Source of the DNA: Escherichia phage PE37
Length of the DNA stretch: 64,000 bases
Sequence record: NC_054929.1
Direction: 5' to 3' (one strand)
The notes under the pieces are model-generated. The model was given only the letters and a program-made list of their open reading frames with translations. It was not told the DNA's origin and ran no database searches. The translations under genes were made by a program, and so were the position numbers. Of this stretch, positions 3,450-63,664 are shown in pieces (position 1 is the first letter of the stretch; each line of letters begins with the position of its first letter).

Positions 3450-4020
<571 letters not shown>

Positions 4021-4039
4021 AGTTACTTGGAGGGATAAA

Positions 4040-4456
4040 ATGACTCGTATTAATTTGACTTTAGTATCTGAACTTGCTGATCAACATTTAATCGCAGAAT
4101 ACCGTGAATTGCCACGTGTTTTTGGTATAGTTCGTAAACATGTGGCAAATGGTAAACGGGTTAAAGATTTTAAAATATCTTCCGAGTTTATTTTAGGTTC
4201 TGGTCATGTTACGTTCTTTTACGATAAGTTAGAATTTTTGCGAAAGCGTCAATCAGACATTATAACGGAATGCTTAAAACGCGGGTTTAGTATAAAAGAT
4301 ACTGAAGTTCCTGACATCGGCGATATTCCAGCAGAATGGAAAAATGATTATAATCCATGCAAATCAGCTATTAAATTGAGTCAACAACGACTCAATGAAA
4401 AAATTTTAATGAAGCCACACTGGTACAAGTATTACGGCAAAAATATTTACATTTAA
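4040..4456 (+). CDS. denV: endonuclease V, pyrimidine-dimer DNA glycosylase
   Basis: 138 aa, [17 protein letters not shown]..., matches T4 endo V. Confidence 0.95.
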
Positions 4457-4465
4457 AGGAAACAC

Positions 4466-4939
4466 ATGAAAACATATCAAGAATTTATTACTGAAGCAGC
4501 TATTAATTCTCAAATTATTGCTGAATCTTTTACTGATCTTTTGAAATTTAAAAAAGGTCAAAAAATCACTGCTGTATTGGATGATGGTACAGAAGTTGAG
4601 ATGGATGTACAGGGATATAATTATGCAGTAGATGGAAAACTGTATAATAAATCTCATGCTAAATTTGATTCATTTGACGACTTTGTTAATACAGTTGAAG
4701 ATGAAAAAACTCGTCGATCCATTGCAACTGGTGATGCTAAGGTTCTTATGGCACATGGTCATGAACGCATTCGCGCTAAACAGAATAAAATGGGCGAAGA
4801 TAATTTCGCATTAGTTGGTTATCAATCTGGTAAACAAACTTATGGTTATCAGCGTACTGCTACCATGTATAATAAAAATGGTAAAATTGCCTTTGTGAAT
4901 AGTAAGGGTTCTATTCAGTACGTTAAATCGTTCAAATAA
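4466..4939 (+). CDS. capsid internal protein (Ip family)
   Basis: N-terminal capsid-targeting sequence MKTYQEFITE with protease site after E; 157 aa, length differs from T4 ipII/ipIII. Confidence 0.75.
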   Translation: MKTYQEFITEAAINSQIIAESFTDLLKFKKGQKITAVLDDGTEVEMDVQGYNYAVDGKLYNKSHAKFDSFDDFVNTVEDEKTRRSIATGDAKVLMAHGHERIRAKQNKMGEDNFALVGYQSGKQTYGYQRTATMYNKNGKIAFVNSKGSIQYVKSFK

Positions 4940-5073
4940 TATGGGAACAGCCTGGACCTCATTTGAGGTATTCCCGCCAACCTGTAATAAGGTCGAGCCC
5001 AAGCGCGGTAATGGGTAAATACAGAAATGGACAATTCATGCGCCATGGAATGGCCCAAACTTAGAGAGAAGAA

Positions 5074-5613
5074 ATGAGAACATTTTTAACTGGTCCTTAT
5101 CTATCCCTGATGAATGCTTTTACACACCATTCTGATGCTAGAGTAGAAGAAATTTGTAAAAACGAATATATCCCGCCATTTGAAGACTTACTTAAGCAGT
5201 ATTGCACACTTCGTATAGATGGTGGACGTCAATCCGGTAAATCAACTGCTGTGACTAACTTTGCTGCTAATTGGCTGTATGATGGTGGAACAGTTATTGT
5301 TCTTTCTAATACTTCAGCTTACGCTAAAATTTCTGCAAATAACATTAAAAAAGAATTTTCTCGTTATTCTGGCGATGATATTCGATTCCGCTTATTTACC
5401 GATTCTGTCCGTAGTTTTATCGGTAATAAAGGAAGCAAGTTCAGAGGTTTATCGCTTTCACGAATTTTGTATATAATTGATGAGCCTGTTAAAGCTCCTG
5501 ATATGGATAAAATTTACGATATTCATATTGAAACTGTACATTACTGTTGCAATAGTAAATGCTGCATTGGTGGTATTACTCGTCCACAGTTTTTCATAAT
5601 CGGAATGCAATGA
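5074..5613 (+). CDS. small P-loop NTPase (vs.8 position)
   Basis: Walker A GGRQSGKST, Walker B ILYIIDEP. Confidence 0.6.
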   Translation: MRTFLTGPYLSLMNAFTHHSDARVEEICKNEYIPPFEDLLKQYCTLRIDGGRQSGKSTAVTNFAANWLYDGGTVIVLSNTSAYAKISANNIKKEFSRYSGDDIRFRLFTDSVRSFIGNKGSKFRGLSLSRILYIIDEPVKAPDMDKIYDIHIETVHYCCNSKCCIGGITRPQFFIIGMQ

Positions 5614-5939
5614 TGACAGACACACAGCTTTTCGAATATCTTTATTTTTCGCCAAAAACTATTAAAAATAAATTGGTGAATCATTTTGAAATTTTGGCAA
5701 ATAATAACGTCTTGAGCGAATTTTATCCTAAGCAATACAAATTACAAAAAGGCGTATTCAAAGGATGCAGAGTTTTGTGCACTGCTCCTAATGCAAGATT
5801 AATGAATAAAATTCCATATTTTACCATGGAATTTATTGATGGACCTTTTAAAGGACTAATCACCCAAAGTTTAATGGCATATGATTCTGAGCCATTTTTA
5901 ATTAAAGAACAGTCTTGGATAAATTTATTTTCTAATTGA
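5610..5939 (+). CDS. hypothetical protein
   Basis: ATGATGA overlap with upstream stop. Confidence 0.5.
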   Translation: MMTDTQLFEYLYFSPKTIKNKLVNHFEILANNNVLSEFYPKQYKLQKGVFKGCRVLCTAPNARLMNKIPYFTMEFIDGPFKGLITQSLMAYDSEPFLIKEQSWINLFSN

Positions 5940-5945
5940 GGTTAT

Positions 5946-6308
5946 ATGAAAGCATATCAAATTCTTGAAGGCACACATAAAGGTACTATTTATTTTGAAG
6001 ATGGTATTCAAGCACGAATTATTGTCTCCAAAACCTTTAAAGAGGACTCTTTTGTAGACCCAGAAATTTTCTACGGTTTGCATGCCCGTGAAATTGAAAT
6101 TGAACCACAGCCTACAGTTAAAATTGAAGGTGGTCAACACCTGAACGTTAACGTTCTGCGTCGTGAAACTCTGGAAGATGCAGTTAAGCATCCGGAAAAA
6201 TATCCGCAGCTGACCATCCGTGTATCCGGTTATGCAGTTCGCTTTAACTCTCTGACTCCGGAACAGCAGCGCGACGTTATCGCTCGTACCTTTACTGAGA
6301 GCTTGTAA
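5946..6308 (+). CDS. autonomous glycyl-radical cofactor (GrcA/YfiD-like)
   Basis: C-terminal [29 protein letters not shown] glycyl-radical motif; 3' half has E. coli-like codon usage. Confidence 0.85.
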
Positions 6309-6529
6309 TGGCAAAGATAATTATTGAAGGTTCTAAAGATGTGTTAAATGCTTTCGCCGAGTGGTTTAGTAATTCAGGCGAACAGCAATTTAATGAAGCG
6401 TGGACCATGGGTGATATTGATGGAATTTATCCTACGACAGAAATTTCTGTTCAAGGATATGGCATTCATGAACCTATTCGTTTAGTTGAATATGATTTAT
6501 GTACTGGTGAGGAAGTCAAATATGATTGA
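6308..6529 (+). CDS. hypothetical protein
   Basis: TAATG overlap; 73 aa. Confidence 0.55.
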   Translation: MAKIIIEGSKDVLNAFAEWFSNSGEQQFNEAWTMGDIDGIYPTTEISVQGYGIHEPIRLVEYDLCTGEEVKYD

Positions 6530-6788
6530 AGACATTAAGGGTTATAAGCCACATACTGAAGAGAAAATCGGTAAAGTGAATGCTATCAAAGATGCTGAAG
6601 TTCGTTTAGGACTTATCTTTGACGCTTTATATGATGAATTCTGGGAAGCACTAGATAATTGTGAAGACTGTGAATTCGCGAAGAATTATGCTGAAAGTCT
6701 CGATCAGTTAACTATTGCTAAAACGAAACTCAAAGAAGCCAGTATGTGGGCTTGTCGTGCTGTGTTCCAACCAGAGGAAAAATATTAA
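6522..6788 (+). CDS. hypothetical protein at vs.4 position (candidate Acb2-like cyclic-nucleotide sponge)
   Basis: in-frame ATG at 6522; assignment by synteny only. Confidence 0.5.
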
Positions 6789-7066
6789 TGGCTCAATTAA
6801 GCGCAGGGTTTGGTTATGAGTATTATACTGCCCCTCGTCGTGCATCTGTTGCTCCTAAGAAAATTCAAAGTCTTGATGACTTCCAAGAAGTAGTCCGTAA
6901 AGCTTTTCAGGACTATGCACGTTATCTTAAAGAAGATTCACAGGACTGTCTCGAAGAAGATGAAATTGCTTACTATACGCAGCGTCTTGAACAGCTCAAA
7001 AATCTACATGAGGTTCGTGCAGAAGTTTCAAAGTCTATGAATAAATTGATTAGATTTAAAGAATAA
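6788..7066 (+). CDS. hypothetical protein
   Basis: in-frame ATG at 6788 overlapping upstream stop. Confidence 0.5.
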
Positions 7067-7105
7067 CTGTTTACTTTTCCTCTTGACTGTGGTATAATTT
7101 TTCTA
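7060..7105 (+). promoter_or_regulatory. early promoter
   Basis: GTTTAC 7069-7074, 18 bp, TATAAT 7093-7098. Confidence 0.7.
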
Positions 7106-7125
7106 TCAGTTAAGAGGAGAATAAC

Positions 7126-7587
7126 ATGACTATCAATACAGAAGTTTTTATCCGTCGAAATAAGCTTCGTCGTCACTTTGAGTCGGAGTTTCGTCAAATT
7201 AACAATGAGATTCGTGAGGCATCAAAAGCAGCAGGGGTCTCATCGTTTCATCTAAAATATTCTCAGCATCTTCTTGATCGTGCAATTCAACGGGAGATTG
7301 ATGAGACATATGTTTTTGAATTATTCCACAAAATAAAAGACCATGTTTTAGAAGTTAATGAATTCCTGAGTATGCCTCCGCGTCCTGACATTGACGAGGA
7401 TTTTATTGATGGGGTTGAATATCGTCCTGGGCGTTTGGAAATTACAGATGGAAATCTTTGGCTTGGATTTACAGTTTGTAAGCCTAATGAGAAGTTCAAA
7501 AACCCGTCACTTCAATGCAGGATGGCAATTATCAACAGTCGTCGTTTACCAGGAAAGGCTTCTAAAGCAGTAATTAAAACTCAATGA
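7126..7587 (+). CDS. regB: endoribonuclease RegB
   Basis: 153 aa, MTINTEVFIRRNKLRRHFESEFRQ..., matches T4 RegB; SD GAGGAG. Confidence 0.9.
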   Translation: MTINTEVFIRRNKLRRHFESEFRQINNEIREASKAAGVSSFHLKYSQHLLDRAIQREIDETYVFELFHKIKDHVLEVNEFLSMPPRPDIDEDFIDGVEYRPGRLEITDGNLWLGFTVCKPNEKFKNPSLQCRMAIINSRRLPGKASKAVIKTQ

Positions 7588-7594
7588 GGTAAGC

Positions 7595-8140
7595 ATGAGA
7601 AAAGCACTACTCGCTGGTCTATTGGCCATTTCAATGATGGCACATAGCTCCGAGCATACTTTCAGTAATGTCCAACTCGATAACATGCGTTACGCGTATC
7701 AATTCGGGGAACAATTTTCTAAGGATGGAAAATATAAAACACACAAAAATATCCACAAGAGCGGATTAGGTCATATAATGGCTGCTATTTTATGGCAAGA
7801 AAGCTCTGGCGGAGTTAATTTAAAATCTAAACCAAAGCATCACGCCTACGGAATGTTCCAAAATTATTTGCCTACTATGCGAGCAAGAGTTAAGGAACTT
7901 GGTTATAATATGACCGATGCTGAAATAAAAAGAATGTTGAATAAACGGTCCAATTCAGCTTCCTGGGCGTACATTGAACTTTCTTATTGGTTAAATATAC
8001 ATAAGGGCGATATAAGAAAAGCAATATCCTCTTATAATTCGGGATGGAATGTTAAAGCAGGTTCTAAATATGCTTCTGAAGTCCTAGAAAAGGCTAATTA
8101 CCTTAAAAATAATAAACTTTTGGAAATAGTAAATGACTAA
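7595..8140 (+). CDS. secreted lytic transglycosylase-like protein (vs.1 position)
   Basis: signal peptide; SLT-like motifs (WQESSG, AYGMFQ). Confidence 0.65.
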   Translation: MRKALLAGLLAISMMAHSSEHTFSNVQLDNMRYAYQFGEQFSKDGKYKTHKNIHKSGLGHIMAAILWQESSGGVNLKSKPKHHAYGMFQNYLPTMRARVKELGYNMTDAEIKRMLNKRSNSASWAYIELSYWLNIHKGDIRKAISSYNSGWNVKAGSKYASEVLEKANYLKNNKLLEIVND

Positions 8141-8474
8141 AATTTTGGTTTTATGTATAGGATTAATTTCATTTTCTGCGTTAGCAAATACATCATATAC
8201 TGAAATTAGAGAGTATGTAAACCGTACTGCCGCGGATTATTGCGGGAAAAATAAAGCATGCCAAGCTGAATTTGCGCAGAAATTAATATATGCATATAAA
8301 GACGGAGAAAGAGATAAATCAAGCAGATACAAAAATGATACATTGTTAAAACGATATGCTAAAAAGTGGAATACCTTAGAATGTTCAGTTGCGGAGGAGA
8401 AAGATAAAGCCGCTTGTCATTCAATGGTTGACCGTTTAGTAGATTCTTATAATCGAGGATTGAGTACTAGATGA
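8133..8474 (+). CDS. vs: valyl-tRNA synthetase modifier-like protein
   Basis: 113 aa, position between regB/vs.1 and tk as in T4; signal-like N-terminus. Confidence 0.55.
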   Translation: MTKILVLCIGLISFSALANTSYTEIREYVNRTAADYCGKNKACQAEFAQKLIYAYKDGERDKSSRYKNDTLLKRYAKKWNTLECSVAEEKDKAACHSMVDRLVDSYNRGLSTR

Positions 8475-8950
8475 TTGTAAAATATATCAAGGGCGATATT
8501 GTCGCCCTATTTCTTCAAGGTAATATTATTGCGCACGGGTGCAATTGTTTTCATACTATGGGTTCAGGTGTAGCGGGTCAATTAGCAAGAGCCTATCCTA
8601 AAATTTTAGAAATAGATAAAACCACTACTGAGTACGGTTCTCGTGATAAATTAGGCGATATGTCTATTGTTTTTAAACATAATCCTACGGGATTTGGTAT
8701 ATGCTATAACCTGTATACGCAATACGAACCGGGTCCTAATCTTGATTATGGTGCTTTAGTAAACTGCATGATAGAATTAAATCTACAGGCAGAAACCCTT
8801 TTGTTTAAACCAGTAATTTACATTCCACGCATAGGTTGTGGTATTGCTGGCGGTGATTGGGATAAGGTTTCTAAATTAATCGACATGTTTACTCCTGATA
8901 TTGATTTAATAGTGGTGGATTATGAAAGTACATTACCCGCATCCGTTTGA
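8471..8950 (+). CDS. macro-domain protein (ADP-ribose binding/processing)
   Basis: GDIV...NIIAHGCNCFHTMGSGVAGQLA macro-domain signature. Confidence 0.6.
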   Translation: MIVKYIKGDIVALFLQGNIIAHGCNCFHTMGSGVAGQLARAYPKILEIDKTTTEYGSRDKLGDMSIVFKHNPTGFGICYNLYTQYEPGPNLDYGALVNCMIELNLQAETLLFKPVIYIPRIGCGIAGGDWDKVSKLIDMFTPDIDLIVVDYESTLPASV

Positions 8951-9134
8951 TCCTAAAAACAAAGTGGAAATTATTCGTCAATGGGAACGCATTTGCCGTA
9001 CTAAATGCCCAATTAATAGTCCACATGATGTAGATAAAGACTATATTGGAACATTCGTTGAATATACCTTTATTGATAGGAAAGGTCGTAAACAACATGT
9101 AGAAGAATATTGCTTAAAGGTTACATGGTTATGA
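8922..9134 (+). CDS. hypothetical protein
   Basis: ATG; 70 aa. Confidence 0.5.
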   Translation: MKVHYPHPFDPKNKVEIIRQWERICRTKCPINSPHDVDKDYIGTFVEYTFIDRKGRKQHVEEYCLKVTWL

Positions 9135-9337
9135 GCCAAACTAGTATTCTTAAAAATGCTCATTGTGAAAAGTGTGAATGGCCAGTTGTTTTTGCTTTAT
9201 GTAATGATGAAATGGCTTGTGATTTCGATTATTGGTGCTATTGTTCCAATAAAGGATGCATCAATCATAAAGGTGAAGGATTTTATTCAGGATTTTATCC
9301 TTATCCTGATTTCGTTAAAGAAGGTAAACCGAAATGA
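9131..9337 (+). CDS. Cys-rich small protein (probable zinc binding)
   Basis: ATGA overlap; CEKCEW...CDFDYWCYC...GC. Confidence 0.5.
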   Translation: MSQTSILKNAHCEKCEWPVVFALCNDEMACDFDYWCYCSNKGCINHKGEGFYSGFYPYPDFVKEGKPK

Positions 9338-9507
9338 ATAGTTTTGAGTTACAATATGAAGTGTTACGTGAGCTTGATAATTTAATTGAACTCGCTGCTA
9401 ATAAAGGTTTTGCCATTGGAATCGGTCAAAAAGATACTGACCATTTAACTACGGAAATATTTAAGCAAAAGCGAATTATTTTAAAACTCCTGGAAATTAA
9501 TATATGA
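9334..9507 (+). CDS. small hypothetical protein (57 aa)
   Basis: ATGA overlaps at both ends; not in ORF track. Confidence 0.45.
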   Translation: MNSFELQYEVLRELDNLIELAANKGFAIGIGQKDTDHLTTEIFKQKRIILKLLEINI

Positions 9508-9689
9508 GTCTGAGTAAAGAACAAAAAGATAAATTGTTTGAGCTTATCCATGAACTTCTAGATGAGCATGCAGAAGCAAACACCTTTTATGATGAATACG
9601 GCCCGCTATCTCCCGAACAACAAGAAGAATTTGCTGACCGGTTTGATAAGAAAGAAAACGAATTAATAGCTTATGTGAATACGCTTTAA
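9504..9689 (+). CDS. hypothetical acidic protein
   Basis: ATG; 61 aa. Confidence 0.5.
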   Translation: MSLSKEQKDKLFELIHELLDEHAEANTFYDEYGPLSPEQQEEFADRFDKKENELIAYVNTL

Positions 9690-9698
9690 GAAGGTGAT

Positions 9699-10280
9699 AT
9701 GGCGAGTTTAATTTTTACTTATGCAGCAATGAATGCTGGAAAATCTGCTTCTCTTTTGACTGCTGCACATAATTATAAAGAACGTGGAATGAGTGTATTA
9801 GTTCTTAAGCCTGCTATTGATACTCGCGATTCTGTCTGTGAAGTTGTTTCTCGCATTGGAATTAAACAGGAAGCGAATATTATTACAGATGATATGGATA
9901 TTTTCGAGTTCTATAAATGGGCTGAAGCACAAAAAGATATTCATTGTGTATTTGTAGATGAAGCTCAGTTTTTAAAAACTGAACAAGTGCATCAATTGAG
10001 CCGAATTGTTGATACATATAATGTTCCTGTTATGGCTTATGGATTAAGGACTGATTTCGCTGGAAAATTGTTTGAAGGTTCTAAAGAACTTTTAGCGATT
10101 GCAGATAAACTTATTGAACTAAAGGCAGTTTGTCATTGCGGCAAAAAAGCGATTATGACAGCTCGATTAATGGAAGATGGAACACCAGTTAAAGAAGGTA
10201 ATCAAATCTGTATTGGTGATGAAATTTATGTTTCTTTGTGCAGAAAACATTGGAATGAATTAACTAAAAAGCTCGGTTAG
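9699..10280 (+). CDS. tk: thymidine kinase
   Basis: 193 aa, MASLIFTYAAMNAGKSASLL..., P-loop plus C-terminal zinc ribbon; matches T4 Tk. Confidence 0.95.
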   Translation: MASLIFTYAAMNAGKSASLLTAAHNYKERGMSVLVLKPAIDTRDSVCEVVSRIGIKQEANIITDDMDIFEFYKWAEAQKDIHCVFVDEAQFLKTEQVHQLSRIVDTYNVPVMAYGLRTDFAGKLFEGSKELLAIADKLIELKAVCHCGKKAIMTARLMEDGTPVKEGNQICIGDEIYVSLCRKHWNELTKKLG

Positions 10281-62683: not shown

Positions 62684-63108
62684 TGGCTATTAAATTTGAA
62701 GTTAATAAATGGTATCAATTTAAAAATAAACAAGCTCAAGAAGATTTTATCAAGGACCATACTGAAAACGGAATTTATGCACGACGTCTTGGTATGGAAC
62801 CTTTTAGAGTTACAGATATTGACTATCTTGGTCGTCCTACTAAACTTGTGACATCTAGTGGAAAATTGGGGTTATCTTCTGGTAAAGATATTTTGGATGA
62901 AGATTTTATCTGGCTTTCAACGAGTGAAGCTGTGTTCTTTGATGAAGTGGAAAATCCATACCAGGCAGCTGAAGAGCAAGAGCAGGAAGAGAAAGAGCAA
63001 GAACAAATAGAAGATTTCACAGAATTCCCGGTCATGAAAGTTACTATTGAAAATAATGAACAGGCATGGTCTTTGTATCAGATGTTGAAAGCACACTTTA
63101 AGGAATAA
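62683..63108 (+). CDS. hypothetical acidic protein (goF position)
   Basis: TAATG junction; 141 aa. Confidence 0.55.
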
Positions 63109-63110
63109 TT

Positions 63111-63287
63111 ATGCCAATGTATGATTATAAATGCCAATCCGAAGATTGCGGGCATGAATATGAAAAAATTAAAAAGATTTCTGAACGAGAAAATGATGTT
63201 TGCCCTAAATGTCATCGTTTGTCTACTCGTCGGCCTTCTGCTCCTAAGCATGTGAATGGCGGTTTTTACGATTTACTTAAAGGGTGA
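63111..63287 (+). CDS. zinc-ribbon mini-protein (FmdB-like CxxC...CxxC)
   Basis: ATG+SD AAGGAA; CQSEDC...CPKC; not in ORF track. Confidence 0.45.
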   Translation: MPMYDYKCQSEDCGHEYEKIKKISERENDVCPKCHRLSTRRPSAPKHVNGGFYDLLKG

Positions 63288-63289
63288 TT

Positions 63290-63664
63290 ATGTTTAAAAT
63301 CGGTAAGAAATATCGTGTTCGCGAAGGTGAAGAAAAGAAATATCTACTTTCTGCTAGTAATAGGAATGGTTCTATTAATGCCGTAATATCTACAAGCGAA
63401 TTTATCGTTGAAGATATGAAAGGTCATAATGTTACAATGATTAGTACAGCAACTAGCAGAAATGCTGGAAAAATTCTTCACAGTCTGCGGAGTGAAGTTC
63501 TAATTTATGATGAAGAATTTGACTTCTTCGAAGAAGTCACTGAAGATTTTGATTTTGAATGCACTATCACTATGAAATCTGGCGACCCTCTTTCTTTTAC
63601 AGTTAAAGATGAAAGAAGCCGTTTGAGAATTATTAGTCTCCTTCAAGCCATTAAATTTAAGTGA
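63290..63664 (+). CDS. hypothetical protein
   Basis: ATG overlapping upstream stop; 124 aa. Confidence 0.55.
   Translation: MFKIGKKYRVREGEEKKYLLSASNRNGSINAVISTSEFIVEDMKGHNVTMISTATSRNAGKILHSLRSEVLIYDEEFDFFEEVTEDFDFECTITMKSGDPLSFTVKDERSRLRIISLLQAIKFK

Follow-up and report, generated by a model that had tools for sequence, protein, structure and literature searches.

The vs.4 gene of Escherichia phage PE37 encodes a protein identical to the cyclic-dinucleotide sponge Acb2 of phage T4

Does Escherichia phage PE37 carry an Acb2-type sponge, i.e., a small protein that captures the cyclic nucleotide signals of the antiphage defence CBASS? The question is raised by an 88-aa ORF at positions 6522-6788 of the window, the 64,000-nucleotide stretch of PE37 (NC_054929.1) that was analysed. 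The initial annotation had placed this ORF at the vs.4 position by gene order only and had noted that the vs.4 product of T4 has been described as Acb2, which sequesters cyclic oligonucleotide signals. We consider it almost certain that the gene is indeed the vs.4/acb2 gene of a Tequatrovirus and that it encodes a sponge for cGAMP and other cyclic dinucleotides (CDN) acting against CBASS. In the form of the T4 protein, vs.4/acb2 is already known and experimentally characterized.

The ORF is present as proposed, running on the plus strand from ATG to TAA (6522..6788) and encoding 88 amino acids with the C-terminal end FQPEEKY. A phmmer search of the PDB identified chain 7UQ2_A, deposited as 'Vs.4', as identical in 88/88 residues (E 1.9e-57), and the product is likewise identical to the translation NP_049728 of the T4 reference genome NC_000866, in which vs.4 (T4p115) occupies 63078..63344 with the same length of 267 bp. 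The position is also the same in both phages, between vs.5 and vs.3 and upstream of regB. At the DNA level, 258 out of 267 positions match those of T4, and the nine differences are all located at third codon positions and synonymous, with no non-synonymous difference, which indicates that the protein sequence has probably been kept by purifying selection. Owing to the complete identity of the proteins and the synonymous nature of all nine nucleotide differences, chance is ruled out as an explanation for the assignment.

Membership in the Acb2 family was evaluated with the Pfam profile PF24729 (Acb2_Tad1_hairpin; Acb2/Tad1, hairpin domain), for which the cut-off is 27 bits. The vs.4 product matched this profile over its entire length (positions 1-58 of 58) with 71.4 bits (E 7.1e-20). 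In addition, the PDB search yielded a weak end-to-end alignment (E 0.026) with Acb2 of the Pseudomonas phage PaMx33 (p26; 8H2J, 8IXZ), the founding member of the family, which has the same fold and approximately 24% identity. In this alignment, Y8 and K23 of the vs.4 product pair without gaps with Y11 and K26 of PaMx33 Acb2 (8h2j), which stack on the cyclic dinucleotide and form a salt bridge with it, respectively (PMC10312549). The tyrosine and the lysine of the family's CDN pocket are thus both kept, and the size of 88 aa fits that of the PDB relatives (89-93 aa), so that profile, homology to characterized members, pocket residues, and size all agree with Acb2. The initial annotation had named alignment to T4 Vs.4/Acb2 as the way to check its proposal, and a lack of similarity to Acb2 as a finding that would speak against it. 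The alignment extends over the full length of both the T4 and the PaMx33 proteins, similarity to the family is far above the profile cut-off, and what had been derived from gene order is confirmed by the identity to 7UQ2 and NP_049728 and by the PF24729 match.

PaMx33 Acb2 is likewise a hexamer with three CDN sites, but it possesses a second pocket (R67, T74) that binds cyclic trinucleotides, whereas the protein of the T4 type carries D61 and T68, has an unkinked helix, and does not bind cA3 or cAAG (PMC10312549). For T4-Acb2, a KD of approximately 84 nM was determined for 3',3'-cGAMP, and the spectrum of dinucleotides bound was the same as for PaMx33 Acb2 (Cao et al., PMC10312549). The failure to bind cA3 and cAAG was ascribed to D61 and the unkinked helix (Y37, A57, L60, D61, T64), and the D61R mutant was still devoid of cA3 binding (PMC10312549). 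Y37, A57, L60, D61, T64, and T68 are all found at exactly these positions in the vs.4 product, which does not have the trinucleotide pocket of the PaMx33 type. Since D61 and T68 are present and T4-Acb2 does not bind cA3 even as D61R, the PE37 protein is placed by its residues outside the dual CDN/cyclic-trinucleotide subgroup and belongs to the CDN-only T4 type.

Because the sequences are identical, the published experiments on T4 Vs.4 apply directly to the PE37 protein, and it is from these that a hexameric state, ligand binding, and inhibition of CBASS are to be expected of the vs.4 product. As summarized in a commentary (PMC10449767) on the study by Jenson et al. (Nature 2023), mutagenesis of T4 singled out Vs.4 as the anti-CBASS factor, calorimetry demonstrated binding of cGAMP, the crystal structure revealed a hexamer with three bound cGAMP molecules, mutants in the binding interface lost their function, and recombinant Vs.4 acted as a sponge that stops activation of the effector CapV. 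The commentary credits a companion study with the family name Acb2. The PDB entry 7UQ2 contains six chains. T4 Acb2 has further been reported to sequester 2',3'-c-di-AMP and to be both necessary and sufficient to trigger the OptSE (Panoptes) defence; binding was lost in the Y8A mutant and in the escaper F82C, and the ligand came off intact after treatment with proteinase K (PMC12657218). F82 and Y8 are both present in the vs.4 product.

In PE37, the product of vs.4 would accordingly form a hexamer with three pockets, each built from the N-terminal parts of two protomers, with Tyr8 stacking on the ligand and Lys23 contributing salt bridges. In these pockets, 3',3'-cGAMP and further cyclic dinucleotides synthesized by the CD-NTase of the host would be captured and sequestered, which would keep the free signal under the activation threshold of the CBASS effector. 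With the signal below this threshold, the infected cell would not commit suicide and the phage could complete its cycle. The ligand would be held rather than degraded, and cyclic trinucleotides would not be bound by a protein of the T4 type. In hosts equipped with Panoptes (OptSE), the same sponge would become a liability, as removal of the decoy 2',3'-c-di-AMP would trigger the defence.

One might argue that the main natural target of the vs.4 product is a signal other than that of CBASS, for example 3'cADPR of Thoeris, as ten Acb2 homologues were found to inhibit type I Thoeris by binding this molecule (PMC12393519). We regard this as very unlikely: the same study describes T4 Acb2 as a sponge for CBASS signals, T4 genetics, as far as covered by the commentary and by the Panoptes work, link vs.4 to CBASS evasion and to the triggering of Panoptes (PMC10449767, PMC12657218), and no Thoeris activity of the T4 protein is reported in the studies consulted. 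Tad1 (Thoeris anti-defence 1) shares with the vs.4 product the hairpin domain PF24729 and the general role of a sponge for immune signalling nucleotides. It is a larger protein, however, which binds primarily gcADPR from Thoeris, whereas the vs.4 product represents the short Acb2 type. Acb1 (T4 gp57B) is a T4 anti-CBASS factor directed against the same cyclic nucleotide signals as Acb2, but the two have no sequence relation. As a phosphodiesterase, Acb1 breaks the signal down, in contrast to Acb2, which binds it without cleavage (PMC12657218, PMC10312549).

The immediate sequence context of vs.4 in PE37 argues for a translated gene. A Shine-Dalgarno-like GAGG is located on the plus strand at 6509..6512, 9 nt 5′ of the ATG, and probably serves vs.4; the same stretch is found in T4, and a ribosome_binding_site is annotated at the matching site of the T4 record X04567.1. 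The start codon shares bases with the TGA stop codon of vs.5 (ATGATTGA, 6522-6529) and the stop codon TAA with the ATG of vs.3 (TAATG, 6786-6790), and we infer that translation of vs.4 may be coupled to that of both neighbours through these overlapping codons. The mechanical ORF listing also contains a version of 100 aa with a TTG start at 6486. This version was dismissed and the ATG at 6522 taken as the start, because the T4 annotation and the crystallized protein begin at this ATG and the Shine-Dalgarno motif precedes it. On the opposite strand, the only ORF is a mechanical one of 45 aa (6708-6845), for which no evidence of being a gene was found.

A promoter/terminator scan of the region revealed no sigma-70-like promoter directly upstream of vs.4, and promoter-like sites occurred at background frequency (22 compared to 18 ± 4 in shuffled sequence). 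Since there is no nearby promoter and such sites do not exceed background, vs.4 is presumably transcribed from promoters further upstream as part of a polycistronic message with the upstream vs genes. The missing dedicated promoter could also be taken to mean that vs.4 is silent or decaying in PE37, i.e., that the gene is there but lacks expression or function. This appears even less probable than a target outside CBASS, as the ORF is intact, is preceded by a Shine-Dalgarno motif, and overlaps its neighbours at start and stop in a manner typical of co-translated early/middle genes of T4, as no amino acid has changed among nine synonymous exchanges, and as the same or almost the same protein occurs in hundreds of phages. 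Moreover, a transcriptome atlas reports expression of the orthologue in T4, for the most part in the middle and late phases.

The order of genes around acb2 was established by blastp against the T4 proteins. The block reads nudE, e, denV, an extra ORF, vs.8, vs.7, vs.6, vs.5, vs.4, vs.3, regB, vs.1, vs, tk.4, tk.3, tk.2, and tk, and most of the ORFs are 95-100% identical to their T4 counterparts. Between denV and vs, T4 has eight ORFs and the window nine, the additional one being an ORF of 157 aa from the Pfam family DUF7412 (4466-4939) that adjoins denV. The initial annotation, which had counted eight as in T4, was therefore mistaken in the number; the vs.4 position itself is right when counted from vs (vs.1, regB, vs.3, vs.4), although a count of eight begun at the denV side would miss the gene.

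The two adjacent genes do not resemble Acb2. Upstream, the vs.5 homologue (6308..6529, plus strand) encodes 73 aa with a full-length match to phrog_1986, and downstream, the vs.3 homologue (6788..7066, plus strand) encodes 92 aa that belong to phrog_2037 and are 97.8% identical to T4 Vs.3. Neither has an Acb2/Tad1 match in Pfam, vs.5 being without any Pfam match, and neither has an Acb2-like match in the PDB, where vs.5 finds no meaningful match at all. The products of vs.5, vs.4, and vs.3 fall into three different PHROGs, all labelled 'unknown function'; the PHROGs library is older than the work on Acb2. The idea that vs.5 or vs.3 is the true Acb2 orthologue and 6522-6788 something else, which could draw on the miscount only, since counting from denV shifts the assignment by one, has a negligible chance of being correct in view of the identity of the 6522-6788 product to T4 Vs.4 and was refuted for both neighbours by the PDB, Pfam, and T4 comparisons. 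As vs.5 and vs.3 are without similarity to Acb2, the orthologue is the ORF at 6522-6788, and the possibility allowed for in the initial annotation, an orthologue in a neighbouring ORF or none at all, does not apply.

A difference from T4 in the immediate surroundings of acb2 concerns vs.5, which is intact in PE37 and overlaps acb2 whereas its T4 version is shortened by a 1-nt deletion. The T4 reference lacks one base at window position 6357 ('GCCGAG' here, 'G-CGAG' in T4), and its annotated Vs.5 of 58 aa has only the first 18 residues in common with the 73-aa protein of the window and ends 36 bp before vs.4. Because it is the 73-aa form that matches phrog_1986 over the full length, the allele in the T4 reference seems to carry a frameshift or else a sequencing error. 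One could speculate that the 73-aa form of vs.5, vs.4/acb2, and vs.3 constitute a counter-defence cassette with coupled translation, and that Vs.5 and/or Vs.3 would also counteract the immunity of the host or modulate Acb2. We consider this idea, which derives from gene overlap and co-conservation, improbable. If it were true, a role of Vs.5 would have escaped notice in laboratory work owing to the frameshift in the T4 reference strain. No literature treating vs.3, vs.5, regB, and vs.4 together was found, and the tight coupling of acb2 with the uncharacterized vs.5 and vs.3 is the only mildly unexplored point of the locus.

Homologues of vs.4 were detected by tblastn in 1234 phage records and reach at least 99% amino acid identity in 120 of these. 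The carriers are mostly T-even-like phages of enterobacteria such as Escherichia, Klebsiella, and Shigella. Among close relatives, most GenBank records label the gene 'hypothetical protein', and for this reason the name acb2 could be propagated; in PV390659.2 and PP434423.1 the same gene is already annotated as 'anti-CBASS protein 2'/acb2. The identification of a canonical cyclic-dinucleotide sponge in this T4-like phage matters for annotation only and advances no open question. As PE37 carries such a sponge, it is predicted to resist CBASS of the cGAMP type and to be sensitive to decoy systems of the Panoptes type.

Several observations were made on other genes of the block. The vs.3 protein (92 aa) has a close relative of solved structure in 9wiw_A (109 aa, E 4.6e-37), which was deposited as 'Endoribonuclease', and several GenBank records carry the label 'endoribonuclease RegB' on vs.3 or vs.1. 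The Pfam profile REGB_T4 does not match vs.3, its sole match being the true regB (7126-7587), and on this ground the name on vs.3 may be annotation spill-over. Between vs.3 and regB, a gap of 59 bp contains a promoter-like site (7070-7098, plus strand; TTTACT, 17 nt, TATAAT, the -10 hexamer being preceded by TG), which among the sigma-70-type matches on the coding strand of this block is the best placed. The vs.6 homologue (5946-6308, plus strand), 99% identical to T4 Vs.6, encodes a C-terminal glycine-radical domain (PF01228, E 2.8e-18) and corresponds to the GrcA-like spare part for pyruvate formate-lyase that is known from phages.

Judged by its sequence, the window belongs to a Tequatrovirus that is closely related to T4 yet distinct from it; for positions 4000-9700, Escherichia phage EO1 matches best, with 98.1%. 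The DUF7412 ORF (4466-4939, plus strand; Pfam E 5.7e-96), situated between denV and vs.8, is not found there in T4. It shows a weak N-terminal likeness to T4 IpII (31% over 77 aa). The e-denV interval of the window lacks ipII and ipIII, and the annotation of phage P8 gives two fragments of an 'internal virion protein' for the equivalent stretch. Next to this inserted gene, the vs.8 homologue (5074-5613, plus strand) is shortened at its N-terminus, comprising 179 aa where T4 has 219 aa. Its alignment covers residues 41-219 of the T4 protein, the first 40 residues being missing, and it has weak P-loop/AAA-like Pfam matches below threshold. The ORFs 9131-9337 and 9334-9507 had no match to T4 in the blastp comparison of this block. 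Divergence from T4 is mosaic, with denV (4040-4456) 77%, the macro-domain gene tk.4 (8471-8950) 58%, and tk.2 (9504-9689) 54% identical, all on the plus strand, whereas the flanking regB, vs.1, vs.4, vs.6, and tk are 99-100% identical. The occurrence of genes with 54-77% identity among others with 99-100% suggests modular exchange among T-even phages.
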